From Christensenella sp. (lineage in GTDB: Bacteria > Bacillota > Clostridia > Christensenellales > CAG-138): DNA of 64,000 nt. The position numbers were made by a program, and so were the translations under genes. Below are positions 26,203 through 56,399 of this stretch, in pieces; within the stretch, counting starts at the first letter, position 1; the number at the start of each line of letters is the position of its first letter. The DNA lies in NCBI GenBank assembly GCA_034926785.1, contig JAYFQU010000017.1:50794-114793 (forward strand), written 5' to 3'. The notes below the pieces were generated by a model that worked only from the letters and a program-made list of their open reading frames with translations, did no database searches and was not told where the DNA came from.

Positions 26203-26583
26203 TTAGAGCCGAATGATGCGCAGCGGATCAATCAATACCGTTTGACCATCAATATAATACGTAGTATACTCGCAAACAACAATCGCGCCAATAGAATTCG
26301 CATAGGCCATCACGCCCGAGACGATGGTATCCACCGTAGCCATCAGCCGGGGTACATCATTCCAGGGCGTCAGCTGCGCAACCTTGACCGCGCGCTCAAT
26401 CTGGCGGTTGGCCTGCTTGACCATGCGCTCCAACACCTGAAACTGTGCGTCGGTATAGCGCTCGCTATGGCCGGAAACCGTCGCGTAAGAAGCGCCGTAG
26501 TTCCCCTCCGCGTTTGCCACGCCAGGAATAATCGTCACAAGCAGCAGTACGCAAATCAGGACGCTCATCCATCTCTTTTTCAT
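26203..26583 (-). CDS. Hypothetical secreted protein
   Basis: Start at MKKRWMSVLICVLLLVTIIPGVANA (ATG 26583, RBS GGAGGGG). Signal peptide plus ~100 aa with no recognised domain. Confidence 0.65.
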   Translation of the reverse strand: MKKRWMSVLICVLLLVTIIPGVANAEGNYGASYATVSGHSERYTDAQFQVLERMVKQANRQIERAVKVAQLTPWNDVPRLMATVDTIVSGVMAYANSIGAIVVCEYTTYYIDGQTVLIDPLRIIRL

Positions 26584-26640
26584 TGTTTTCCCCTCCGAAA
26601 CGAATTTTGTTTCGGTTTGGAGTCCCCAGCGACGAAGCAA

Positions 26641-26676
26641 TAAAAAGACAGCTTGCCCTTTATTGCCAAGCTGCCA
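26641..26676 (-). terminator. Intrinsic terminator in the riboswitch expression platform
   Basis: Minus strand reads GGCAGCUUGGC-AAUAAAG-GGCAAGCUGUC followed by UUUUUAUU. It lies about 60 nt upstream of the RBS of the 26583 gene. Confidence 0.6.
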
Positions 26677-26724
26677 AAGATTCGTACGCTGCGCGAAAAC
26701 AACTTCTGTTCGGCAGGACACTCA

Positions 26725-26825
26725 ATTGGCAACTGGCTGCCATCGGCGCATCTCTTTGCGCCATTAGGCCCTTTAGCTTTGCGTCACCCGCTTTCACGGG
26801 TTTTGCCTTTTTCGTGGGAGTTGCT
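26725..26825 (-). promoter_or_regulatory. c-di-GMP-I (GEMM-I) riboswitch aptamer, candidate
   Basis: Minus strand reads ACGAAAAAGGCAAAACCCGUGAAAGCGGGUGACGCAAAGCUAAAGGGCCUAAUGGCGCAAAGAGAUGCGCCGAUGGCAGCC. It shows GGCAAA-CC, a GAAA-capped hairpin, the GACGCAAAGC junction and a CCUAAU//GAUGG receptor-like loop, in the order seen in Vc2. Confidence 0.75.
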
Positions 26826-36121: not shown

Positions 36122-36432
36122 TTTTCATTGCCTCATTTCGATAGCGCTATTCGTGTATTAGTTATATAATACACTGATTCACTTTTTCTGGCAAGCCGCG
36201 GGTTGACGGACATTTCTTTATGCATGCTGACTGGAATTTTGTATATGATATTAGAAGAAAACGCCCATTCCACTGACGTTTTTCATGAATAGATATACTA
36301 TATATTCCACCAATTCGATTGACACGGATATGCCGCAGCCGCTAGGATAGCATCAGCGACCGGTGTCGAAAACCGGCGTTTTCGGACGGATTTTACCCGC
36401 ATATGCACCCCATTCTGAACGGAGGAAGCACC

Positions 36433-37503
36433 ATGCGTCTTTTGATCATCAACCCCGGCGCGACCTCAACCAAAATCGCGGTTTACGAAGACGAATCCGA
36501 GGTCTATCAGGAGTCCGTTTTGCATGCGCCGGATGTGATCTCCGGCTATGCGCATATCATCGACCAGCTTCCCTTTCGCGAGGAGCTGGTGCGCGCGGCA
36601 CTCGCCCGCGCGGGTTATGCCGTCGCATCCTTTCAGGCGGTTTGCAGCCGCGGAGGGCTGCTCCGACACATCCCCTCCGGCACATACGCCATCGACGAGG
36701 CGGTGATTCATGACATCCAGCATCCGCCTTTTGGCGAGCATGCTTCCTCCCTCGGTCCCGTCATCGCCTGGTCGATCGCCCGCGAGGCCGGCATCCCTGC
36801 CTATCTGGTCGATCCCGTCTCCGTGGATGAAATGCAGCCGCTTGCACGCGTCTCAGGCCTCAAGGGCGTCGAGCGGGAGAGCTTTTTTCACGCGCTGAAT
36901 CAGAAGGCGGTTGCCCGTAAGGCCTCGGCCGACCTTGGCAAGCCCTATGAATCACTTAATATGATCGTTGTCCATATGGGCGGCGGCGTCTCCGTTGCCG
37001 CGCATGAGAAGGGCCGTGTGGTGGATGTTTATAACGTTCGCGACGAGGGCAGTTTCTCGCTCGACCGCGCGGGGTCGCTCCCCGTCAACGCGGTGGTCAA
37101 TCTTTGCTTCTCCGGTACGGGCAAGGAGGATATCAAGCGCAGGCTCTCCTTCGAGAGCGGTGTGTTTTCCTATCTCGGTACGCGTGATTTTCGCGAGGTG
37201 GAGCGGCGCATGCTGGAAGGCGACGCTGAGGCGGCGCTGATCTTCCGCGCAATGGCCTACCAACACGCCAAGGACATCGGCGCGATGGCCGCCGTGCTTC
37301 GTTTCTCGGTGGATGCCATCCTGCTCACGGGAGGCATCGCATACTCCGATCGATTTTGCGCCGAGATCTCCGGCTATGTGGAAAAAATCGCCCCGATCCT
37401 TCGCTATCCAGGCGAAGAGGAGATGAAATCGCTCGCGCTTGGCGCGCTTCGCGTGTTGCGCGGCGAAGCGCCGCAGACGTATCCTGCCTCCATTTTGCAA
37501 TGA
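36433..37503 (+). CDS. buk: Butyrate kinase-family acyl kinase
   Basis: ATG 36433 follows GGAGG. Starts MRLLIINPGATSTKIAVYEDE. 356 aa. Confidence 0.9.
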   Translation: MRLLIINPGATSTKIAVYEDESEVYQESVLHAPDVISGYAHIIDQLPFREELVRAALARAGYAVASFQAVCSRGGLLRHIPSGTYAIDEAVIHDIQHPPFGEHASSLGPVIAWSIAREAGIPAYLVDPVSVDEMQPLARVSGLKGVERESFFHALNQKAVARKASADLGKPYESLNMIVVHMGGGVSVAAHEKGRVVDVYNVRDEGSFSLDRAGSLPVNAVVNLCFSGTGKEDIKRRLSFESGVFSYLGTRDFREVERRMLEGDAEAALIFRAMAYQHAKDIGAMAAVLRFSVDAILLTGGIAYSDRFCAEISGYVEKIAPILRYPGEEEMKSLALGALRVLRGEAPQTYPASILQ

Positions 37504-38472: not shown

Positions 38473-40244
38473 GCACGAGCAAGCAACTGTTGACCGGAAA
38501 CGAAGCGATCGCGCGCGGCGCATTTGAAGCGGGCGTCACCGTCTGCTCCGCCTACCCCGGCACGCCGAGCACCGAAATCTTTGAAAACCTCGCGCAATAT
38601 CAGGATGTCCTGTACGCGGAATGGGCGCCGAATGAGAAGGTCGCCACCGAGGTCGCCTATGGCGCCTGCATCGCGAATTCGCGTTCCCTTACGGCGATGA
38701 AGCACGTCGGCCTGAACGTTGCCGCCGACCTGGTCTTCACCGCCGCCTACAACGGCGTAGGCGCGGGGTTTGTCATCGTCACGGCGGACGACCCGGATAT
38801 GCACTCCTCGCAAAACGAGCAGGACAACCGGCGCTATGCCCCGTTTGCCAAAATTCCGCTCATTGAACCCTCCGACTCGCAGGAATGCAAGGACTTTATA
38901 AAGGAGGCCTATTCCATCTCCGAGCGGTTCAATACCCCCGTGCTGTTTCGCACCACAACGCGTGTCAGTCACAGCAAGAGCCTGGTTTCTCTCGGCGAGC
39001 GCGAGGAGCCGGCCCCCGCGCAATATATGCGCAATATCCCGAAATATATCTGCACGCCCGCCTTCGCGCGGCAGCACCGGCCGGAGCTTGAGGAAAAGAT
39101 CAAGGCTCTGGAAGCATACGCCAATACAAGCCCGCTCAATGTGATGGAGCTCAACGGCGGCAAAATCGGTGTGCTTTCCTCTTCCATTGCGTATCAATAC
39201 GCCAAGGAGGTCTTCCCGGCGGATACATCGTTCCTGAAACTTGGTTTTACCTGGCCACTGCCGATGGATCTGATCCGCGATTTCGTCTCCCAGGTGGAGA
39301 CGCTCTATGTTGTGGAAGAGCTTGAACCATTTCTGGAGGAGCAGCTCCGCATGGCAGGCATCCCGTGCATCGGCAAGCGCGTCATACCGCCGATGTTTGA
39401 GTTGAATCCGGAGATTGTGCGCCGCGGCGTATTCGGAACCGAACCCGAAACCGCGGAGCTCAACGTCAAGATGGTCTCCCGTCCCCCGGCGCTGTGCCCC
39501 GGTTGCCCGCACCGCGGATTTTTCTATGTCATGAGTAAGCGCAAGGATTTTGTGATCTCCGGCGACATTGGCTGCTACACACTCGGATATGCCGCGCCGC
39601 TCTCGGCGATGGACACCTGCGCGTGTATGGGCGGCGGTTTCTCACTCGGCATGGGGATGTCCAAAGCGTTTGCCATGCAGGGGATCACCGATAAAAAGGT
39701 TTTCGGCGTGGTTGGCGATTCCACATTTTTTCATAGCGGGCTCACCGGCGCGGTGGAAATTCTCTACAACAAGGGTCGCATGATTCCATGCGTGCTGGAT
39801 AACTCCATCACCGGAATGACGGGGCATCAGGACAACCCCGGAACAGGGTTCACGCTCGGTGGGGAGATCGCGAATAAAATTCCGATTGAAGATGTACTGA
39901 AAAGCTTCGGCTATGGAACGCTCATCGTCGTAGATCCGCAGGATATCAAGGCCATGCAACAAGCGGTTGACGATGCCCTCGCAAGTGAGGTCCCCGCCGC
40001 CATCATCGTGCGCAGGCCATGCCTGCTGATCAAGCGAATCAAACACGACATTGGCAAATGCGTGGTCGATCGGGATCAGTGCCGCGGCTGCAAGATGTGC
40101 CTCAAGGTTGCCTGCCCCGCAATCCATATGCGGGATGGCAAGACCGAAATTGACCAGACCCTTTGCGCGGGCTGCAAGGTCTGCGCGCAGGTCTGCCCCT
40201 TTGGCGCAATCTCCCGCGTCGGCGAAGAGCGGAAAGGAGAATGA
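38469..40244 (+). CDS. iorA: Indolepyruvate:ferredoxin oxidoreductase subunit alpha
   Basis: 591 aa from MSTSKQLLTGNEAIARGAFEAGV. TPP-binding region and two C-terminal CxxCxxCxxxCP clusters. Confidence 0.9.
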   Translation: MSTSKQLLTGNEAIARGAFEAGVTVCSAYPGTPSTEIFENLAQYQDVLYAEWAPNEKVATEVAYGACIANSRSLTAMKHVGLNVAADLVFTAAYNGVGAGFVIVTADDPDMHSSQNEQDNRRYAPFAKIPLIEPSDSQECKDFIKEAYSISERFNTPVLFRTTTRVSHSKSLVSLGEREEPAPAQYMRNIPKYICTPAFARQHRPELEEKIKALEAYANTSPLNVMELNGGKIGVLSSSIAYQYAKEVFPADTSFLKLGFTWPLPMDLIRDFVSQVETLYVVEELEPFLEEQLRMAGIPCIGKRVIPPMFELNPEIVRRGVFGTEPETAELNVKMVSRPPALCPGCPHRGFFYVMSKRKDFVISGDIGCYTLGYAAPLSAMDTCACMGGGFSLGMGMSKAFAMQGITDKKVFGVVGDSTFFHSGLTGAVEILYNKGRMIPCVLDNSITGMTGHQDNPGTGFTLGGEIANKIPIEDVLKSFGYGTLIVVDPQDIKAMQQAVDDALASEVPAAIIVRRPCLLIKRIKHDIGKCVVDRDQCRGCKMCLKVACPAIHMRDGKTEIDQTLCAGCKVCAQVCPFGAISRVGEERKGE

Positions 40245-40249
40245 GGGCT

Positions 40250-40834
40250 ATGACGGCATTTACAGGAAACAGCATTCTCATCTGCGGAGTCGGCGGCCAG
40301 GGCACGCTGCTCATGAGTAAAACCCTGACCGCGGGTCTTGTGCAGGCGGGGTACGACGTCAAGATGAGCGAGGTGCACGGCATGGCGCAGCGAGGCGGCT
40401 CCGTCTCCACGCAGGTGCGCTATGGGGAGAAGATCTATTCCCCCATCATCGGAAGAGGCGAGGCGGATGTCCTCGTCGCCTTTGAAAAACTAGAAGCCGT
40501 GCGCTATTCCGGTCTGTTGAGACCCGGAGGCCTCGCGCTGATCAACGACTATGAGGTAATGCCTCTGCCTGTCGCCAGCGGCGCGGCGGAATATCCGCAG
40601 AACATCGCCGAGGAGATGCGCCGTGCGTTTGACACGCGCATCATCCCCGCGAGTGCCATTGCGTCGGGGCTTGGCAATATTCGCTGCACCAATATCGTTC
40701 TGCTCGGCGCGCTCGTCCGCGCGTTTCATCTGGAGTCCATCGATTGGAACGCCGCGTTGACCGAGTCCGTACCGCCCAAGGTGCTCCCCCTCAACCTCGC
40801 CGCGTTCGATGCGGGCTACCGGTTTGAGGCCTGA
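40250..40834 (+). CDS. iorB: Indolepyruvate:ferredoxin oxidoreductase subunit beta
   Basis: 194 aa starting MTAFTGNSILICGVGGQGTLL. Begins 5 nt after the iorA stop. Confidence 0.88.
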   Translation: MTAFTGNSILICGVGGQGTLLMSKTLTAGLVQAGYDVKMSEVHGMAQRGGSVSTQVRYGEKIYSPIIGRGEADVLVAFEKLEAVRYSGLLRPGGLALINDYEVMPLPVASGAAEYPQNIAEEMRRAFDTRIIPASAIASGLGNIRCTNIVLLGALVRAFHLESIDWNAALTESVPPKVLPLNLAAFDAGYRFEA

Positions 40835-43548: not shown

Positions 43549-44595
43549 TCAGCCCTCCGCGCCGCCGTTCGCTTCAAAGGCAAGGAATGTCGCTTTATCC
43601 GAGAGAATATAGGCCTCCAGCTCGTTTGCCATGGTCAGGCAGACGCCCATGCCCGCGTTGCTGGAAAGATACCAGTCGCTATACGCCGCAACGCTCGCCA
43701 CATCCGTGGTGATCCCCAGCGACTCCGGCCACAAGGAGACTTCCTTCGTGTGCGTGCCGCTCTGATCCCCGCGCGAAACGAAGGGGAACTTACCCTCGGC
43801 GATGCGCGCAAACGCGTCCTTCACATTCGCCGCCTCAGCGCACTTTGCCGGATCGTCATTCGGACCGACCAGCACAAAATAGTTATACATAAACGTAAGG
43901 CGCTCGGCGCTGTAGCCGTCGAGCAGCTTGGCGTATCCGTCCGCAACGAACTTTTCTTCCTGAGACTTGCTGTGTACGAGAATGAGATCCGCGTTGCCCA
44001 TCGTTGCCGCCGCGATGGCCTTGCCGGTTCCGGCGGAGGATACCTCCACCGTATAGCCATACTTCGCCTCAAACATCGGCAGCAGATAGGTCAGCAGTCC
44101 GCTGTCGTTGACCGATGTGGTCGTGGAGAGGCGAATCGTCCTTGTCGCGTCCGTCGCATCCGGGATCGCCACCGAGGAGACCGGTTTATCAGGGGTCAAG
44201 GTGAAGAGTGCCTCGCCGTATTGGGACACACCGTATCCGGAGATCAGCTGTGCGGCCTCATCGCTCATGAGCCAGTCGATGAGTGCCTTTGCCCCGATGG
44301 TATTGATCGCAACCCCGCTCACCGCTTTGCCGTCCGCGTCCTTGAAGGGCGCCGCGTCATTCACGGCGATGACGGTATAGTTGTTCTTCATGTCGTCGTC
44401 CTGCTCGAGCAGAATCTTGATGCCAAGGCCGTTCTCGCTCACCGCTAGGGTGGGCGCGGCGTCCTGTGCCGCGGCTATGACAATCTCCGGCGTAACATCG
44501 GCAGAGGGCGTCCCGCTCGCGGCCGGTTTTGCGCATCCAAAGACGGATAACACAACCAGCAACGCAATTGCTACCGCAAAAAAGCGTTTTCTCAT
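43549..44595 (-). CDS. tupA: TupA-like oxyanion (tungstate) binding lipoprotein, apparently permuted
   Basis: Start at MRKRFFAVAIALLVVLSVFGC (lipobox) at ATG 44595 with RBS AAAGGAG. Contains RLSTTTSVNDSGLL (TTTS motif) and FVSRGDQSGTH. The family's usual C-terminal segment is found at the N-terminus. Confidence 0.75.
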   Translation of the reverse strand: MRKRFFAVAIALLVVLSVFGCAKPAASGTPSADVTPEIVIAAAQDAAPTLAVSENGLGIKILLEQDDDMKNNYTVIAVNDAAPFKDADGKAVSGVAINTIGAKALIDWLMSDEAAQLISGYGVSQYGEALFTLTPDKPVSSVAIPDATDATRTIRLSTTTSVNDSGLLTYLLPMFEAKYGYTVEVSSAGTGKAIAAATMGNADLILVHSKSQEEKFVADGYAKLLDGYSAERLTFMYNYFVLVGPNDDPAKCAEAANVKDAFARIAEGKFPFVSRGDQSGTHTKEVSLWPESLGITTDVASVAAYSDWYLSSNAGMGVCLTMANELEAYILSDKATFLAFEANGGAEG

Positions 44596-44669
44596 GATCT
44601 GATTCTCCTTTTTGATACAAGGAAAAGGCTCCGACTCGTGCCAGACCGCGCCAAATTCAAAATCGATAT

Positions 44670-44768
44670 GCGATCTCCTTTGCAAATTCGGCAGGCACGC
44701 CCGTTTCCAGCCGTACCCATTGACCAACGCGGCCTCGCGGTATTCGGTCGCGATGATTCGGAGATTTT
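44670..44768 (-). promoter_or_regulatory. Moco/Tuco riboswitch-like leader, candidate
   Basis: Minus strand reads AUCUCCGAAUC...GGCUGGAAACGGGCGUGCCUGCCGAAUUUGCAAAGGAGAU. An AUCUCC/GGAGAU closing helix is present, together with CUCCGA, GCCUGCC and AAAGGAG blocks that I associate with the Moco RNA motif. It lies about 75 nt upstream of tupA. Confidence 0.45.
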
Positions 44769-44892
44769 CCTTTTTCTTTGTTGTCTTCCGGAGTATGAAA
44801 AAAGCCGGCGTCTGCCCAGGATATGACGTTTTGTTCGCCCACGAGCACCGGATTCTCATCGCCGCCGGGAGATAGTCAACAGCTGTATTATT

Positions 44893-48042: not shown

Positions 48043-48537
48043 TTATGCCGGAAGAAAATAGAGCGTGTCCAGCAATTCCAGCCCGGCTTTCGTGCGAAAG
48101 AGCTTTTCACGAACCGAACGGATCGCATCCTCACCCATACTCTCCTCATATGCATTGACGAGAAAGTCCGCCTCGACCAGAATTTGATAATCCAACTCTT
48201 GAATGTTCGCGTAGGTGTGGTGATGCGCAATCAGCCAGCAGACACGCTCCGTGAGTTTCCGTCCAGCGCCCAGCGAGAGCAGCATTTTCTCCGCCTCCGG
48301 AGGCCCCTCAATCTGTTGATGTTCACCGGAGCAGTTGCCATATTTCTGTTCGCTGTTTCGAATACCGATGTCGTGTGTCAGCGCGGCAATCTCAAGAACC
48401 ACCTGTGCGAAGGGCTCCAACCCTTCGCGCGCTCCTATGGCTTTCGCAAACCCGTATACCTTAAGCAGATGATTGATCCGCCGCGCATCCCCAGTGTTAT
48501 AAAGCATCATTGCATATAAAACATCTTCTGTCAGCAT
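48043..48537 (-). CDS. HD-domain phosphohydrolase
   Basis: ATG 48537 follows GAGGTGG. 164 aa. Contains H...LTHDIG...HHH metal-binding residues. Confidence 0.8.
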   Translation of the reverse strand: MLTEDVLYAMMLYNTGDARRINHLLKVYGFAKAIGAREGLEPFAQVVLEIAALTHDIGIRNSEQKYGNCSGEHQQIEGPPEAEKMLLSLGAGRKLTERVCWLIAHHHTYANIQELDYQILVEADFLVNAYEESMGEDAIRSVREKLFRTKAGLELLDTLYFLPA

Positions 48538-48700
48538 TCCGCCCACCTCGTTTTTGAATCACTTTTTTATTATTTTACTCGTTTTTCGCCTTAGCGTACA
48601 GCCGGCCCACAGCAGAAAGCATAAGCGGCATACATATAGGAATAGGAGGCGCAACCGATCCGGTACGCCTCCCATTTGAATTGATCTTGTTCTTTAATGG

Positions 48701-51700
48701 TTATGCTTTGGGTTTAACCTTAATGCCAAGCACGGTCAACACAGCCTGCACCGCACCAATTCCGCCCATCAGCAGCGACCATTTGTCAAACAACACCGCC
48801 TGATTCTGCATGTTCTGGGTGAGGATGAATGCGAGGATTGCGCCGATTGCCGGGGCCAGCGTGGAGAATCGAATCCCTGCACGTTTCTTGCTCCTGACGC
48901 CCTCCATATCCTTGTTCTTGTTGAGGAGGCCGACCAGCATGGTGCCGGAAGCAAGCGCGGTGGCAATCGTCATAATCAGGTTAAAGACCGACCAGGTCGG
49001 CGCGGGCGCGGCTAACGGCACCGGCGCATCCGTAATATTTTCCAGAACGTTGGATGTACGGACCATGGTACCGTAAATCGTAACACCGCCTACCGGCACA
49101 GTAGCGGGAATCACGCTCGTCCAGCCTTCAAACTGGTAGCCATCCTCTGCCGGATCGTCCGGAATCGGCATGGGTGCATTGTACGGCAGGTTTGCGTAGG
49201 TGGCATACGGCGTTGCGCCATCCAGCCCGGTCAGCGTACCTCCGGTAACAACATAGCTTACCGTGTAGAGCTGCTGCTCCCATTGCGCATAGAGCGTTAC
49301 GGCTGCGGCAGGCATTACAAACACGTCACCCGGCGTATAAACCACGCCGCTGTTGGCTCCCGTTCCCCAGCCGAGGAACGTATAGCCCGTTCTGGTGAAG
49401 GTGTTTCCGGCCACGGTAACATCGCCGAATGTCGGATAGAACCCTTCCGTATAGGTCGCGCCTGTTCCGCCGTTTGCCGAGTAAAGCACCGGCGAGATGA
49501 TGATCTGCCAGACGGCCGCAAACGTCACGTCGTTGGCCGGCATTGCGAAGGTTCCTCCCGCAGCCAGCGTCTGTGTAGTGCCGTTGATATCCGTGGTGCG
49601 CCAGCCCATGAAGTTATATCCCGGGCGTACCGGGTTCGCGGCCGCGAGCGTAACGGTAGACGTAAACGGCGTGTTCAGGATAGCCGCCGGCATGTTGGTC
49701 ACTTCACCGGCGGGAGCGTTTGCAACATACGTCGTATCGAATACGTCAAACGCCCAGACGGCGAGGAGATCATAGTTGCGATCGACCGGCGAAATCACCG
49801 CTCCAAGCGCAATGTTGTCGCCCGTGCTCTGGTCCTGCCAGCCGGTCAGCACATATCCCGTACGCGTAATTCCGGTCGCATCCGCAATCGTTGCACTGCC
49901 GTGATAGTCAACCCACGCCGCAGCCGGAATCCCGATGACCGGATCCGTCGTGTTCGCGCTGTAGGTAACGCGCGGGCGAACCTTCAGCGTGCCCTCGGTG
50001 GGTTGGAGATCATAGTTGCCCGGAAGCGTATTTTGCTTCAGCTCCAGACCCACGATGGTGTTCGTCACCGTGCCGGGGTCCGTAATCGTTCCGTTTGCAG
50101 CAGGCGCTGCGAGGAATCCTTCGTCTAATACGAATCCATCGCCTCCGAGGGTGACGCCGGTGTTCGTCAGCGGCAGACCGTCATAGTCCTTGCTGTCACT
50201 CTGCGAAGTGAGCGTGATGCTGCGCTGCGTAATCGTAACGTCCGCGGAGGAGAACGATGTCACATAGTTGGAGTTCACCGCCGCGACATAGATTGTCTTG
50301 CTGTCTTCAACGTTCTTCGCGGTCGGTTTCGTCGGCAAATATGTTGAGAGATCGGTTCCGCCCGTGATGTTATAGAGCAGGTCGGTTCCCTCCGTAATAT
50401 TCGCGCTGGCGCCAATCGTTTGCTCGACTCCGTTATATAGGCCGCTATACGGCGTTGCGATTACTTTAAGCGCATCGGATGGCGTGATCGTCAACGTTCC
50501 TTCGTTTTTGACGATGTTGTAGTTGTTCAGGTTCGTATGCGAGTTAACCGACGGAACATTAATCGTGTTCGGCGTAGATCCAACGTCCGTAATGGTCCCC
50601 GTCGCGGACGGATCCGACCGGAACCCCTGGGCGTAAATGAATCCGTCCCCGCTGACCGCCACGCCCGGCTTCGTGAGCGGCATGCGGTCATATGGCTTGC
50701 TTGCGCCGTCGGAGGTCAGGATAATGTCCCGTTTGAGAATCGTCAGCGACGCGGTCGTATAGGCCGTTTCATAATTCGAGTTTACCGCAGCAATAGTAAC
50801 CGTCTTGCTGTCGGCAACGTTTAGCGCATACGGTGCAATGATCGAATAATCGCCCGGATAAGCACCGCCCGTTAGGCTATAGTAGATCGTTGTCCCCGCC
50901 CACACGCTCGGTTGCGGCAGCAGGAAATGCGGCAGCCCGTCATACTTCGCGCTGTAGGAGTCTGCCGTGACGGTGAGCTTGTTGGACTTTGTCACCGTCA
51001 ACGTGCCGTTTGCGGGCGTAAAGGAGTAGTTCGCTGCGCTCAGTCCGCTCACATTCGGGCGAATGGTATAAGAGCCCACCGGAAGGAAGTTGCTCACCGT
51101 TACGGGCAGATATCCGTAGGAATAACCATAGCTCACGCTGCCGGAGATCGCCACGGTACCTGCGGTTTCTCCATTCACGAACCCGGCGTACGTCACGGCC
51201 TCCGCGGGTGCGAGCGTGTTCGTGTCGCCATAGGTCATGCTGCGGTCCCCCGCGGTAACCGTCAGAACCGCCTTTTTAACGGTCAGCGTGCCTTCATTGG
51301 TCTTAATGGTATAGTTTTCTGCAAGTGTTGTGTCCGCATTCAACGCGGGAACCACGATGGTATTCTTTGTGCTGCCGGCATTCGTGATGGAACCGCTTGC
51401 AACCGGTGTTTCCACAAAGCCTTCTCCGTTGACAAAGCCGTTTCCTGTCTGGTTCACCACGGTGCTGGTCAACGGCGTGCCATCATAGGTTTTGTTCGCG
51501 CTTTGCGAAGAAAGGTTGATGGTGCGCGGGGTGATGGTCACCCTTGCCGAACCAAACGCCGTCACGTAGTTTGCGTTCACTGCGGCAACGTAGATGATTT
51601 TACTCTCGCTGACGTTTTTCGCCGTAGGCTTCACGCTGGAGTATTGGCTCAGGTTGGTTCCGCCCGACGTGCTGTACAGGAAGCTCGTTCCCGCAGGCAC

Positions 51701-52456
51701 ATTTGTGGAGACGCCAACCGTCTGCGCCACTCCGTTATACATGCCGTTATAAGGAGTTACCGTCACCCGAAGTCCGCTGGCGAGGTTCACGGTCAGCGTG
51801 CCGTCCGCCGAAACAAAGGTGTAGTTCTCCGCCGTCAAGCCACTGACGACCGGCCGAATCGTATAGAAACCGGCGGGAAGCGTCGTGCTCACAGTCACAG
51901 GCGTCGTTCCCTGCAGGTAGGTGTAGCTTACGGAACCGCCGATCCCCGCCGTCGCCGCAGTTTCACCATTGACAAAGCCGGAATAGACGACCGACGCTGT
52001 CGCAGGGGTAAGTGATCCCAGGTTGCCATATGTCATGCTGCGGTTGCCGGCTGTTGCGGTCAAGACCGCTTTTTCGATCTTCAGCTTGCCGGTCACATAG
52101 ATGACATTGTAGTGATTGGTGACGTCATTGCCCAGGCCGTCCCTGATGACAAGGGCGCCCTGATTCGAGAAGTCCGCCGTATACTCGCCCGCCTTGGTTC
52201 CCTTGGCTCCCGCGGTCAGGTCTCCAAATGTTAGATTGCTGATCGAGCTGGTAAACCCGGAAACGCTCTGCTCTTTCCCGTTATATGTCACGGTCAGGCC
52301 TTTGGACGTCAGGGTTAGATCGATCTGCTTCTCCCAGTGCGCTGTAAAGCTTTTATCCCCCGTTGATCCGCTTGGGATACGATCCGTCTCCGTCCAGCCC
52401 GTGAAATAATAGCCGGGGCGCGAAGGATCCGCCAGTACGATCAACCCGCTGTTCAC
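48701..52456 (-). CDS. Surface protein, C-terminal part (MBG-domain and Listeria-Bacteroides repeats, C-terminal TM anchor); continues the reading frame of 52565..54490
   Basis: 1251-aa ORF with repeated MBG-like modules (...AENYTF..DGTLTV.., ...NYSFTPANGTLTVT) and GW-type repeats (GYVLTGW, GYNFMGW, GYTFLGW). No signal peptide of its own. The frame stays open upstream to the TGA at 52565. Confidence 0.8.
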   Translation of the reverse strand: MNSGLIVLADPSRPGYYFTGWTETDRIPSGSTGDKSFTAHWEKQIDLTLTSKGLTVTYNGKEQSVSGFTSSISNLTFGDLTAGAKGTKAGEYTADFSNQGALVIRDGLGNDVTNHYNVIYVTGKLKIEKAVLTATAGNRSMTYGNLGSLTPATASVVYSGFVNGETAATAGIGGSVSYTYLQGTTPVTVSTTLPAGFYTIRPVVSGLTAENYTFVSADGTLTVNLASGLRVTVTPYNGMYNGVAQTVGVSTNVPAGTSFLYSTSGGTNLSQYSSVKPTAKNVSESKIIYVAAVNANYVTAFGSARVTITPRTINLSSQSANKTYDGTPLTSTVVNQTGNGFVNGEGFVETPVASGSITNAGSTKNTIVVPALNADTTLAENYTIKTNEGTLTVKKAVLTVTAGDRSMTYGDTNTLAPAEAVTYAGFVNGETAGTVAISGSVSYGYSYGYLPVTVSNFLPVGSYTIRPNVSGLSAANYSFTPANGTLTVTKSNKLTVTADSYSAKYDGLPHFLLPQPSVWAGTTIYYSLTGGAYPGDYSIIAPYALNVADSKTVTIAAVNSNYETAYTTASLTILKRDIILTSDGASKPYDRMPLTKPGVAVSGDGFIYAQGFRSDPSATGTITDVGSTPNTINVPSVNSHTNLNNYNIVKNEGTLTITPSDALKVIATPYSGLYNGVEQTIGASANITEGTDLLYNITGGTDLSTYLPTKPTAKNVEDSKTIYVAAVNSNYVTSFSSADVTITQRSITLTSQSDSKDYDGLPLTNTGVTLGGDGFVLDEGFLAAPAANGTITDPGTVTNTIVGLELKQNTLPGNYDLQPTEGTLKVRPRVTYSANTTDPVIGIPAAAWVDYHGSATIADATGITRTGYVLTGWQDQSTGDNIALGAVISPVDRNYDLLAVWAFDVFDTTYVANAPAGEVTNMPAAILNTPFTSTVTLAAANPVRPGYNFMGWRTTDINGTTQTLAAGGTFAMPANDVTFAAVWQIIISPVLYSANGGTGATYTEGFYPTFGDVTVAGNTFTRTGYTFLGWGTGANSGVVYTPGDVFVMPAAAVTLYAQWEQQLYTVSYVVTGGTLTGLDGATPYATYANLPYNAPMPIPDDPAEDGYQFEGWTSVIPATVPVGGVTIYGTMVRTSNVLENITDAPVPLAAPAPTWSVFNLIMTIATALASGTMLVGLLNKNKDMEGVRSKKRAGIRFSTLAPAIGAILAFILTQNMQNQAVLFDKWSLLMGGIGAVQAVLTVLGIKVKPKA

Positions 52457-52534
52457 CGTATAGGTTTTCGGATTTGCATCGCTGTTGATGCCGTGATCCA
52501 GATTATACTCAATATTGTATATGATCGGATCAGA

Positions 52535-53221
52535 CCACTTCGCCGTAAATGTCTTGGGTCCGGTTCAACCGAGCGGGATGCTGTTCCCCTCAACCCAGCC
52601 GTCGAACGAATAGCCATCCCTTGTCGGGTTCTGCAGCGTGATTGCGTCCAATACGGTGTAGTATGCGGGGTTCGCTCCCGCGTTGCTTCCGCCGGCGCCC
52701 AGGACATAGGTAATCGGGTACTGCAGCGGAGCGGACCAGTTCGCGGTAAACGTCCTCGGCCCGGTCGAATTCGCCGGAATGGTATTCCCCTCCGTCCAGT
52801 TGATGAAGTTATATCCCAACTTGGTCGGATTCTTGATTGTGATGAGCCCGCTCTCAATGGTGTAGCTTTCCGGATTTTCCGTGTTGTTTACACCGTCTTT
52901 GAGTATATAGGTAATCACATAAGAAGCCGGGAGCCACTTCGCCGTGAACGTCTTGGGTCCGGTTGAACCGAGCGGGATACTGTTCCCCTCAACCCAGCCG
53001 TTAAACGAATAGCCGCTCCTTGTCGGGTTCTGCAGCGTGATTGCGTCCAGTACGGTGTAGTATGCGGGGTTCGCTCCCGCGTTGCTTCCGCCGGCGCCCA
53101 GAACATAGGTAATCGGGTACTGCAGCGGAGCGGACCAGTTCGCGGTAAACGTCTTGTCGCCGGTCGAATTCGCCGGAATGGTATTCCCCTCCGTCCAGTT
53201 GATGAAGTTATATCCCAACTT
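52535..53221 (-). repeat. Tandem intragenic repeat, 399-bp (133-codon) period, two ~288-bp near-identical cores
   Basis: 52535..52822 versus 52934..53221 differ at only about a dozen positions by eye. Both encode KLGYNFINW...NPAYYTVLDAITLQNPTR.GYSF.GWVEGNSIPLG[S/*]TGPKTFTAKW. Confidence 0.9.
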
Positions 53222-54490
53222 GGTCGGCGGAAGGATCGTAATCGCACTGTTCTGTTTAACATAGGTAGTGGGATTACCTGGGTTGTTCGCGCCTCCATTC
53301 AACACATATGTGATTGAGTAAACTGTGTAAACGGGGGCATTATTCTTGAAATGAATTTCTACATTATAGATATTTGATGAACCTTGTTGTTGAAGAGTAG
53401 GGTTAGCAAGAAGGTTCGCATTCGCGTTAGTAGGATCATATCCAAGCGCATAATCCGTCCCTAAAGCGTTTACTAGATTGGATTGATTGTCACTAAGATA
53501 ATTAGCAATCTGGTTATCGCTGACATTATTCAGGGTGATTTCCGAAATCAGCTCAGCCTGCTTGCCGTTCCCGAGATAAATCTTAACATTGATGATGTTG
53601 TAGTGTCTCCAAGCCGCCGTGAGCGTCACAGCGTTGCCAGGCATCGTGAATGTGCCGCCCGGCGCAAAGGCCTGGGCCGACCCGGTCACGTCGCTTGTCG
53701 TCCAGTTGACGAACGCATACTCGGCACGCACGGGCACGGCGCTCGGAATGGTGTATGTTGAGCCAACCGCAACCGCGGTCTCGTTGGTCGGAAGCCCGGT
53801 CACGCCGGTCGCGCCGGCATCGTAATTCACCGCAAAGGTTGTCACCGGAGCCGGTGCCATAAGCGCCCTCGCCATCAGAGGTTGCACTTCGCCGAACACC
53901 GCGTTGAGCGTCAGATTTCCGACGACCGGTAAAAAGAAGTCATATGGCGTCTGATCCGCAGCGCTCCAATAGAGGAAAGCCATGTTTTCAAATTGCGGAT
54001 CTTCCGGCGCTGCAGGATTGCTTGGCTCCGAGGCAAGATCGCCTTGCGTCACCAGCTGCGTCAGATCATCGTCCACTACTCCGTTGATCACGAACTGAAC
54101 GGTGAATTTCTGAGGTTCCGGCGACACGGAAGGATCCGGGCTAACGCTCACCTCCGGGGTAATGCTCACCTCCGGGGTAATGCTGGCATTCGGATCGGGC
54201 GTTACCTGCGGAACTTCGCCTACCACAGGTGGAATGCTATCCGTTGGAGCCGCGTTCGGATCCGGGGTCGGGGTCGCATTCGGCCCCTGCCCTGAGGCGG
54301 TAGCACTCACCATCGGCGTAGGAGTCGCCGAAGTATCGTCCCCTCCCGCACGCTTAGCGGCAGCGTTTTCCCCCGGCTGATTGGACGGAGGATTTTCTGC
54401 CGTCGCCAATGCGGACTGAGGCAGAAGCGCCAAAATCATCAAGGCGCATAGTATAAGGCTGAGAGCCTTTGAAAAACGCGATTTTTTCAT
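52565..54490 (-). CDS. Surface protein, N-terminal part (signal peptide, Pro/Thr linker, Listeria-Bacteroides repeats); ends at an in-frame TGA
   Basis: 641 aa. Starts MKKSRFSKALSLILCALMILALLPQSALA. Has a TPTP/PEVS-rich linker and repeats of the GYNFINWTEGN..STG.KTFTANW type. RBS is AGGAGG. Confidence 0.85.
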   Translation of the reverse strand: MKKSRFSKALSLILCALMILALLPQSALATAENPPSNQPGENAAAKRAGGDDTSATPTPMVSATASGQGPNATPTPDPNAAPTDSIPPVVGEVPQVTPDPNASITPEVSITPEVSVSPDPSVSPEPQKFTVQFVINGVVDDDLTQLVTQGDLASEPSNPAAPEDPQFENMAFLYWSAADQTPYDFFLPVVGNLTLNAVFGEVQPLMARALMAPAPVTTFAVNYDAGATGVTGLPTNETAVAVGSTYTIPSAVPVRAEYAFVNWTTSDVTGSAQAFAPGGTFTMPGNAVTLTAAWRHYNIINVKIYLGNGKQAELISEITLNNVSDNQIANYLSDNQSNLVNALGTDYALGYDPTNANANLLANPTLQQQGSSNIYNVEIHFKNNAPVYTVYSITYVLNGGANNPGNPTTYVKQNSAITILPPTKLGYNFINWTEGNTIPANSTGDKTFTANWSAPLQYPITYVLGAGGSNAGANPAYYTVLDAITLQNPTRSGYSFNGWVEGNSIPLGSTGPKTFTAKWLPASYVITYILKDGVNNTENPESYTIESGLITIKNPTKLGYNFINWTEGNTIPANSTGPRTFTANWSAPLQYPITYVLGAGGSNAGANPAYYTVLDAITLQNPTRDGYSFDGWVEGNSIPLG

Positions 54491-55134
54491 AATTGATTCC
54501 TCCTGAATCGGCCTTGGGGGTACTTGCCTATAAATCTAGGATAACCATATTATAGCGACGCAATATTACATTCGCGTTGTTTTTGTGCTTTTATGATTGG
54601 TTTTTTTACAGTTTATCTGTTTTTTCAAAGGAATTTTCTATTTATTTTTTTGATCGCCCGCTTTATGTTACATTACTGTTTCTTTCTGCTGTTTTACAGC
54701 CGGTTTCAGACTGTTGCTATGTGATGTTATCACCTTTGTTTTTTAGTGAACGGTTGTGGCAATCCCCATCGATTTCCTTATAAGTATTGGTGGTTTTAAC
54801 GTGCGGCAAACAACTGGCTTCAGCGCCCCGGCAGTTGAAGCATGGGGTTCCTATTACATCTATATGAAGAAAGTCCATTTTCGTTCGTGATTGCCCTCTT
54901 CTGAAACGGTCTTTCCATTTCGCCTTGTTTGGGTATCATCCGGCCGCGAAAAATATCACTCATACGCGTTTTATTGCGAATGCTGCAACCGTGGGATCCG
55001 CCCAACGCTGCCGCCCAAATCGCGCTTGCTTCCGGCTATGGCATACCATGCGTGGTGTATTTATTGATTACAGGATCCAGCCGCTTATTCTCATTTCCAG
55101 CATGAGCGGTAGATACAGATCGACGCCTTGCTGT

Positions 55135-55167
55135 AAAAAAAGAGTGGAACCGGTTTCCCGGCTCCAC
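55135..55167 (-). terminator. Rho-independent terminator of ada
   Basis: Minus strand reads GTGGAGCCGG-GAAA-CCGGTTCCAC followed by TCTTTTTTT, about 60 nt after the stop at 55227. Confidence 0.72.
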
Positions 55168-55226
55168 ACGGTGTCTCTTATATCCACAATTTGACTTTAG
55201 TGAAAGGCGATCCCTCGTTACTGTTA

Positions 55227-56261
55227 CTATTCCAGCTCATGTTTGATCAGCCAATCCTTTCGCCAGAGTCCGCCGCCGTATCCCGTCAGCGCCCCATCCG
55301 CGCCGATAACACGATGGCAGGGTATGATGATCGCAATCCGGTTCATTCCATTGGCCGCACCGACCGCCCGAACCGCCCTGGGTTCGCCAATTTGCGCGGC
55401 TATATCGCCGTATGAGCGCATTACCCCATATGGTATTTCTCGGAGCGCACCCCAAACCCGCTGCTGGAAGGGTGTCCCCGGAGCATGCAGCCGAACATCA
55501 AAGGACGTGCGTGTTCCCTCGAAATACTCTGTGATTTCACGGATCGCATCGTCCGTAAACTGGTTTTTGCCCGGCAGAATTACGGCATCGAGCCTTCGTT
55601 GAAGATCCTGAAACTCGGACTCCAGCATGCGCCTATCGCCGAATTCCAGCAGACATACGCCCTCTTCGCTTGCCACGACAACCATTGGCCCAAGCGGCGC
55701 GTCGAACCGCTGATAGACCAGTTTGTTCTTTCTCTCGTGCCTGGCGCGTCCGGGAGCCGCTCCAATTGTCTTGTCAAATGCGGCGGAGAATCCACTCGCG
55801 GATGTATATCCGCTCTCCAATGCAGTCTCCAACACGCTGTTTCCTTCCCGCATTGCGCCAAACGCCGTGTTGATGCGGTTCATCCGGCAGAACGCCTGAA
55901 AGGTCATTCCATACTGCTTTTGAAACCAGCGTCGCAGCGTATTTGGGTCAAATCCGCGCTTGCGCAGCTCCCATTCGGTGATGCGAAAATCCGGCTGGGA
56001 TTCAACCTCCTTTAGCAGGGCGGCGATATCTTCCGGAATCCGGTTTGCGCTTTCCATCGGTCTGCAGATCTTGCAGGGACGGTAGCCTGCGGCCATCGCC
56101 TCCTGTATGGTATCGTAAAAAGCGACGTTCTCCCGCCTTGGTTTCCGCGCTGTGCAGGTGGTTCGGCAAAAGATGCCCGTAGTCTTCACCGCGGCAAAAA
56201 ATGCGCCGTCATAAGCGGTGTTTTTCTCAACCAGCGCATCGTATTTTTCTTGATCGGTCAT
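55227..56261 (-). CDS. ada: Ada-like bifunctional transcriptional activator / methylated-DNA-protein-cysteine methyltransferase
   Basis: Start at MTDQEKY (ATG 56261). Ada Zn-binding region (FCRTTCTARKPRREN...CKICRP), AraC-type HTH, and a C-terminal transferase with IIPCHRVI. Confidence 0.9.
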   Translation of the reverse strand: MTDQEKYDALVEKNTAYDGAFFAAVKTTGIFCRTTCTARKPRRENVAFYDTIQEAMAAGYRPCKICRPMESANRIPEDIAALLKEVESQPDFRITEWELRKRGFDPNTLRRWFQKQYGMTFQAFCRMNRINTAFGAMREGNSVLETALESGYTSASGFSAAFDKTIGAAPGRARHERKNKLVYQRFDAPLGPMVVVASEEGVCLLEFGDRRMLESEFQDLQRRLDAVILPGKNQFTDDAIREITEYFEGTRTSFDVRLHAPGTPFQQRVWGALREIPYGVMRSYGDIAAQIGEPRAVRAVGAANGMNRIAIIIPCHRVIGADGALTGYGGGLWRKDWLIKHELE

Positions 56262-56399
56262 GTGTTTCTTCCCCTTTCCCAAGGAGTATATCACGGCAAA
56301 GGAATTCTTCTCCACCGAAAAAACATCAAGTATAATCGCCCGCCCTCGCATGCAAGAAAGGCCGCCTGAGGCGGCCACAGAGTATCGACAAATCAATTT

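Follow-up and report, generated by a model that had tools for sequence, protein, structure and literature searches.

A probable recent nonsense mutation splits an accessory giant surface-protein gene in a Christensenella-like gut bacterium

A 5.8-kb gene for a giant, repeat-rich, adhesin-like protein anchored in the wall or membrane, encoded on the minus strand of the window (the whole 64,000-nt stretch of DNA analysed here), is split by a single in-frame TGA at codon 642. This stop probably represents a recent, genuine nonsense mutation of a serine codon (TCA Ser642 to TGA) in an accessory gene. The frame bears one in-frame stop at a place where its orthologs are uninterrupted, the ancestral codon was a sense codon, and TGA is a real terminator in this organism. 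Three explanations had been put forward in the first-pass annotation, namely a recent nonsense mutation, a reversible ON/OFF state and a consensus error in a repeat. The first fits all of the evidence and is the most likely, whereas a repeat-caused error is disfavoured by the absence of any repeat copy with a G at the site. The core of that annotation, namely a single ancestral gene that is read with the standard genetic code and broken by one C-to-G change, is supported by the present analysis.

Frame and architecture of the interrupted gene

Translation of positions 54490–48701 on the minus strand yields 1,930 codons with two stops only, the TGA at codon 642 and the terminal TAA. In this frame 641 codons precede the TGA and 1,287 follow it, and the coordinates, codon counts and shared frame reported earlier all proved correct on retranslation. 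The minus strand across the stop reads ...CCG CTC GGT TGA ACC GGA CCC AAG..., with the TGA at 52567–52565 and a C at plus-strand base 52566 (G on the coding strand). In the list of open reading frames, the gene appears as two pieces: an ORF of 641 aa with an ATG start (52565–54490) and one of 1,251 aa counted from its first GTG (48701–52456). The N-terminal ORF encodes a signal peptide, a Pro/Thr-rich linker, Flg_new_2 and five Flg_new repeats. The open frame past the stop (48701–52564, minus strand; 1,287 codons plus TAA) encodes one further Flg_new repeat, MBG_2 modules, C-terminal Flg_new repeats and a FILTED anchor. Together, translation and the intact syntenic orthologs described below point to an ancestral giant surface-protein gene at 48701–54490 (minus strand), with a frame of 1,929 codons and one interruption at codon 642.

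Profile searches place most of this frame in known repeat and module families. Flg_new (PF09479) was matched at 112.6 bits in five stretches of the N-terminal part and at 95 bits in four stretches of the C-terminal part (Pfam; cut-off 27), and the InlB B-repeat family TIGR02543, to which multiple tandem repeats of the protein belong, at 65.9 and 79.6 bits (cut-off 20.95). Flg_new_2 was detected in the N-terminal ORF (Pfam; 39.6 bits), and its match in the second piece was weak and below threshold (19.3 bits versus a Pfam cut-off of 23.6). The MBG modules claimed previously are present as members of the MBG_2 (YGX-type) family (PF18676; 57.8 bits versus a cut-off of 25, in two stretches); all lie downstream of the TGA, in a block at 49979–52318 (minus strand) identified with Pfam and delimited by the ortholog alignment. 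The last ~95 residues belong to the FILTED family (NCBIfam NF052597; 73.2 bits versus a cut-off of 40, profile positions 1–105 of 110), and this match combined with hydropathy suggests a membrane anchor of three C-terminal hydrophobic helices (48713–48994, minus strand). Literature searches found no papers mentioning the FILTED domain and no experimental work on it or on the Flg_new/MBG_2/FILTED architecture; its anchoring mode appears to be uncharacterised.

Hydropathy analysis of the whole frame identified four hydrophobic segments only, one at residues 4–32 and three helices at residues 1835–1925. The export signal and the anchor therefore fall on either side of the stop, and the split between signal peptide and anchor proposed earlier holds. 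The first segment corresponds to a putative signal peptide read from the sequence (MKKSRFSKALSLILCALMILALLPQSALA; 54404–54490, minus strand), which ends in ...SALA. A strong Shine-Dalgarno motif, GGAGG (54499–54503, minus strand), is located 8 nt ahead of the ATG at 54490. Between this start and the ada terminator (55144–55167) lies an unusually long untranslated stretch of ~650 nt (54491–55143, minus strand), which is partly A-rich and contains the sequence TATAAT at 54549–54554. Within the coding sequence, an 18-nt tandem repeat (54135–54184, minus strand; 2.8 copies, 93% matches) encodes the Pro/Thr-rich linker ITPEVS/ITPEVS/VSPDPS, whose length might vary here without loss of frame.

The TGA itself lies in one member of a pair of long repeats. 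Copy A (52934–53227, minus strand) is a 294-nt tract of high identity that covers two Flg_new repeats; copy B (52535–52828, minus strand), which bears the TGA, is 95% identical to it, with the homology ending 30 nt past the stop. The two copies differ at 16 of 294 nt (5.4%), in 12 codons, and the sequence that flanks them is highly diverged. Around the mutated base, exact identity between the copies extends 13 nt upstream and 15 nt downstream. The sister repeat has TCA (Ser509; 52964–52966, minus strand) at a spacing of exactly 399 nt (133 codons) upstream of the TGA, in agreement with the earlier reading of GGT TCA ACC against GGT TGA ACC and a single C/G change at 52566. In the five repeats of this type, the codons at the serine position are TCG, TCA, TCG, TGA and TCA. 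The TGA occupies the centre of an 11-nt palindrome (CGGTTGAACCG); the palindrome is perfect, its general form CGGTT[C/G]AACCG is found at 52560–52570, with the mutated base at the centre, and at 52959–52969, and across these 11 nt copy B reads as copy A reverse-complemented. It may be speculated that the C-to-G change is the expected product of a strand-switch (quasi-palindrome) event, and that the palindrome could be a methylation or restriction motif. C-to-G changes are a rare class of spontaneous mutation, which counts against a genuine nonsense mutation.

Orthologs and the variable slot between ada and the HD-domain gene

The best relative of the merged protein is P0001 (2,432 aa, encoded on the ENA contig L001), which aligns to it by BLASTP in a single alignment running through the stop (query residues 390–1504 to subject residues 727–1839; 63% identity). 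Because this alignment is unbroken across the stop, the two ORFs are indicated to be one gene broken once rather than a chance juxtaposition. The P0001 residue that matches codon 642 by position is Ser980, encoded by TCA, and it sits just before a shared unique junction (...WSxPI(I/V)Y(N/D)IEY(N/D)LDHG). A second relative, in a metagenome-assembled genome labelled uncultured Christensenella sp. (L002), has an intact ORF of 2,373 aa. The part of the protein past the stop is 60–63% identical to its orthologs and the part before it 49%; the downstream part is no less conserved. Given the uninterrupted syntenic orthologs and the TCA in both the positional ortholog and the sister repeat, the ancestral state is therefore indicated to be a single ORF with TCA at codon 642, from which the TGA (52565–52567, minus strand) was derived by a C-to-G transversion.

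Both orthologs share the plan of the interrupted gene, comprising a signal peptide, InlB-B/Flg_new repeats, MBG_2 modules and a C-terminal three-helix FILTED anchor. The gene in the window differs from them in having fewer repeats (1,929 codons versus 2,373–2,432) and in being interrupted by a stop. In the ortholog of L002 (3389–10510), several MBG modules are nearly identical, with KAALTATAVDRSMTYGDTNTLSPAEAVTYTGFVNGE recurring, exactly or with one change, at least five times, and the order of the repeats is unlike that in either the window gene or L001. As judged from their sequences, the L002 repeats show that modules in this family are shuffled rapidly and evolve in concert.

The gene occupies a slot whose content varies among relatives. 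It is bounded upstream by ada (55227–56276, minus strand; identified by NCBIfam Ada and synteny) and downstream by an HD-domain gene (48043–48546, minus strand; identified by Pfam HD and synteny). In L001 and L002, gene order is the same as in the window: ada, the giant protein, the HD gene (164–167 aa) and a gene for an ABC-F protein, which is 537 aa long in L002 and is clipped by the contig end in L001. These two are the closest relatives found by ABC-F identity (about 93% for L001 over the part present on its contig, and about 93% for L002), and both have the giant gene intact. In three others with ABC-F identities of 89–91% (L012, L013 and L018), ada adjoins the HD gene at a distance of about 110–130 nt and the giant gene is absent, and in a fourth (L016) an acyltransferase takes its place in the slot. 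The absence of the gene from these four relatives therefore indicates that it is dispensable, and that it resides in a variable slot (48547–55226 of the window), which makes a loss-of-function allele unsurprising. No sequence from the same species was recovered by exact-protein look-ups of the 641-aa ORF and of the HD and ABC-F genes, by homolog search (best matches 63% for the merged protein and 92% for ABC-F), or by a JGI metagenome protein-pattern scan and a DNA-pattern scan across the stop.

Two riboswitches were also recognised in the window. A c-di-GMP-I riboswitch (26725–26817, minus strand; 79.8 bits) is located directly upstream of a 172-aa ORF (26203–26721), which has no Pfam match. 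A molybdenum/tungsten cofactor riboswitch (44659–44775, minus strand; 56 bits) precedes a gene for a tupA-like tungstate ABC transporter; the mechanically called ORF at 43549–44859 overruns this riboswitch, and the true start is therefore located further downstream.

Sequencing error, recoding and recombination as explanations of the stop

A base-call, polishing or consensus error, with the organism really carrying TCA and an intact gene, is an unlikely explanation but the second in rank. The 1,287 codons past the stop are fully open and at least as conserved as those before it, and, as a point against the nonsense mutation, an intact downstream frame would be seen too if the base were a sequencing error or if the gene still functioned through read-through. 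The stop also sits within a repeat pair of 95% identity and, more speculatively, the palindrome of which it is the centre may be a methylation motif subject to systematic long-read errors. However, mis-mapped reads from the repeats could not create a TGA, since no paralogous copy has a G at this position, and error through repeat mixing is disfavoured on this ground, although a de novo base-call error may still apply. Errors of the C/G transversion type are uncommon on all current sequencing platforms. In addition, the other conserved genes of the window that were compared (ada, HD, ABC-F, tupA/B, an aminotransferase, iorA/B, ptb and buk) each align to their relatives as one uninterrupted piece, with neither stops nor frameshifts, indicating a low error rate. 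A nonsense mutation genuinely present in the organism is thus the favoured reading of the base.

The meaning of the codon depends on the genetic code, which the gene ends and stop-codon usage of the window indicate to be standard. TGA ends 20 of the 49 long non-overlapping ORFs. In butyrate kinase (buk; 36403–37503) and IorB (40163–40834), it lies no more than a few residues from where the NCBIfam profile ends, and a histidine kinase ends at TGA near the end of Pfam HATPase_c. The earlier observation that TGA is used as an ordinary stop elsewhere is borne out for the histidine kinase, ptb and iorA, and applies also to iorB and buk. GC content is 47–61%, and the conserved genes contain no internal stops and end at TGA, which is not the pattern of a UGA-reassigned code (translation tables 4 and 25). 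Codon reassignment was rejected on these grounds.

Functional recoding of the TGA (as selenocysteine, by programmed read-through or as a reassigned codon), or the operation of the two halves as separate working proteins, is very improbable. In favour of some decoding of the stop, UGA terminates comparatively weakly when the next base is A. In-frame stops under purifying selection have been reported to be widespread in bacteria, with possible low-level read-through (Belinky et al. 2021, PMC7918605), and tRNA-Trp variants that read UGA are known in some bacteria (PMC13092985). However, the sole tRNA gene in the window is for tRNA-Leu(CAA), conserved genes end normally at TGA, and the stop is absent from both orthologs and hence not conserved. 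When folded, the 76 nt that begin at the stop are no more stable than shuffled sequence (z = 0.18), as is also the case for the TCA copy, and a permissive Rfam scan of 52200–52800 returned only a chance match to a hairpin ribozyme (E = 6.4). Serine occupies the matching position in most repeats of the family, and neither paralogs nor orthologs have cysteine or selenocysteine there. The sequence thus lacks both the SECIS hairpin after UGA and the Cys/Sec homologs by which selenoproteins are recognised, and selenocysteine insertion or a structured read-through signal was rejected given the unremarkable folds and the lack of Rfam support. With respect to the second half, no in-frame ATG occurs in the 120 codons scanned past the stop, and the three GTG/TTG codons found there have no Shine-Dalgarno motif; with no signal peptide either, internal restart yielding a second functional protein was likewise rejected.

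Reversal of the stop by recombination, in which part of the population would regain an open frame through gene conversion with copy A as donor or through an unequal crossover of the two copies, has been raised as an ON/OFF option but is hardly probable. A donor with the right codon does exist in frame at a distance of 399 nt, the sharply bounded 294-nt tract shows past conversion between the copies, and repeat number varies among orthologs. From its sequence, the tract looks like an old gene-conversion tract that has since diverged by 5.4%, and repair by conversion is possible in principle, yet there is no mark of a switch here. The 13 and 15 nt of exact identity around the base, together with the end of homology 30 nt past the stop, leave very little room in which a repairing crossover or conversion could end. 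To eliminate the TGA, an unequal crossover would have to resolve within this 30-nt stretch; crossovers in the longer identical blocks upstream would keep it. The 16 differences between the copies imply that homogenisation is rare relative to point mutation. No simple-sequence tract, homopolymer or invertible element is present at the site or in the promoter region: the only tandem repeat reported by Tandem Repeats Finder is the 18-mer at 54135–54184, with none at the stop, and no significant inverted repeats were found in the promoter region. The hypermutable element, or silent donor with long homology at the switch site, that characterises contingency loci is accordingly missing, and the short flanking identity, the end of the homology and the 5.4% divergence therefore leave the ON/OFF option unsupported.

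Even taken jointly, switching and functional recoding appear unlikely. A related notion, that the TGA is a maintained device in which leaky UGA-A termination or rare conversion would yield mostly a shed 641-aa fragment and a tunable small amount of the anchored ~200 kDa protein, is conceivable but quite improbable. Were it correct, a gut Christensenella-like bacterium would have in the TGA a means of dosage control or bet-hedging for a giant adhesin.

Predicted consequences and comparison with known premature-stop alleles

A recent nonsense mutation in the ancestral gene would end translation at codon 642. With the signal peptide and the anchor on either side of the stop, the predicted fragment would therefore be secreted and anchorless: a product of ~610 aa after signal-peptide cleavage would be exported but unable to stay attached. 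The remaining 1,287 codons would go unmade, save for a trace of full-length protein from near-cognate read-through of UGA, which ordinarily gives such traces. In functional terms, the anchored ~200 kDa protein would be replaced by a shed N-terminal fragment, and the allele would be one of loss or truncation.

The state of the tail also limits how old the mutation can be. By our own estimate, random sequence of this composition would remain open over 1,287 codons with a probability of about 1e-22, and the tail was therefore under selection until very recently. Of the possible substitutions in the 3,861-nt tail, 3.0% create a stop. Taking this fraction together with the intact tail, and assuming that frameshifting indels arise at a typical rate, we infer that the mutation is younger than roughly 1–2.6% neutral divergence, and would be too young for downstream decay to have begun.

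The practical bearing of these considerations is mostly on annotation. The two ORFs are best recorded as a single disrupted gene (pseudo or truncated) instead of a pair of surface proteins. Provided that the stop is real, the strain has only just ceased to display an accessory adhesin-like protein on its surface. Christensenella-like relatives have either the intact protein or none, in keeping with the rapid turnover of giant repeat proteins in the Firmicutes of the gut. The stop raises no new mechanistic question.

Several known systems offer points of comparison. Phase-variable adhesins and other contingency loci resemble the present case in having a large surface protein as their target and a homologous donor nearby. 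However, such loci use slippage in simple sequence repeats, invertible promoters or cassette conversion, whereas the gene in the window has no simple sequence repeat, invertible element or dedicated silent cassette, and the homology around the site is too short, and has diverged too far, to allow efficient switching. The stops discussed by Belinky et al. (2021, PMC7918605) share with this one the form of a single in-frame stop of the leaky type (UGA) in an otherwise intact gene, but the argument made for them is from stops conserved across species and from dN/dS, and the stop in the window is absent from both orthologs.

The closest parallel is with the premature-stop (PMSC) alleles of inlA in Listeria monocytogenes, which are found in nature and are frequent in some niches (PMC5131979, PMC10299213). 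As in those alleles, a single nonsense mutation affects a repeat-rich surface-protein gene of Gram-positive type, the stop cuts an N-terminal part with a signal peptide from a C-terminal anchor, and a truncated, non-anchored product is expected. InlA is a leucine-rich repeat protein that carries an LPXTG sortase anchor and whose receptor and phenotype are known; the protein of the window, unlike it, is about 1,930 aa long and is built of Flg_new and MBG_2 modules with a three-helix FILTED anchor. The TGA at codon 642 is most likely an event of the same kind as the premature stops of Listeria inlA, real yet ordinary.
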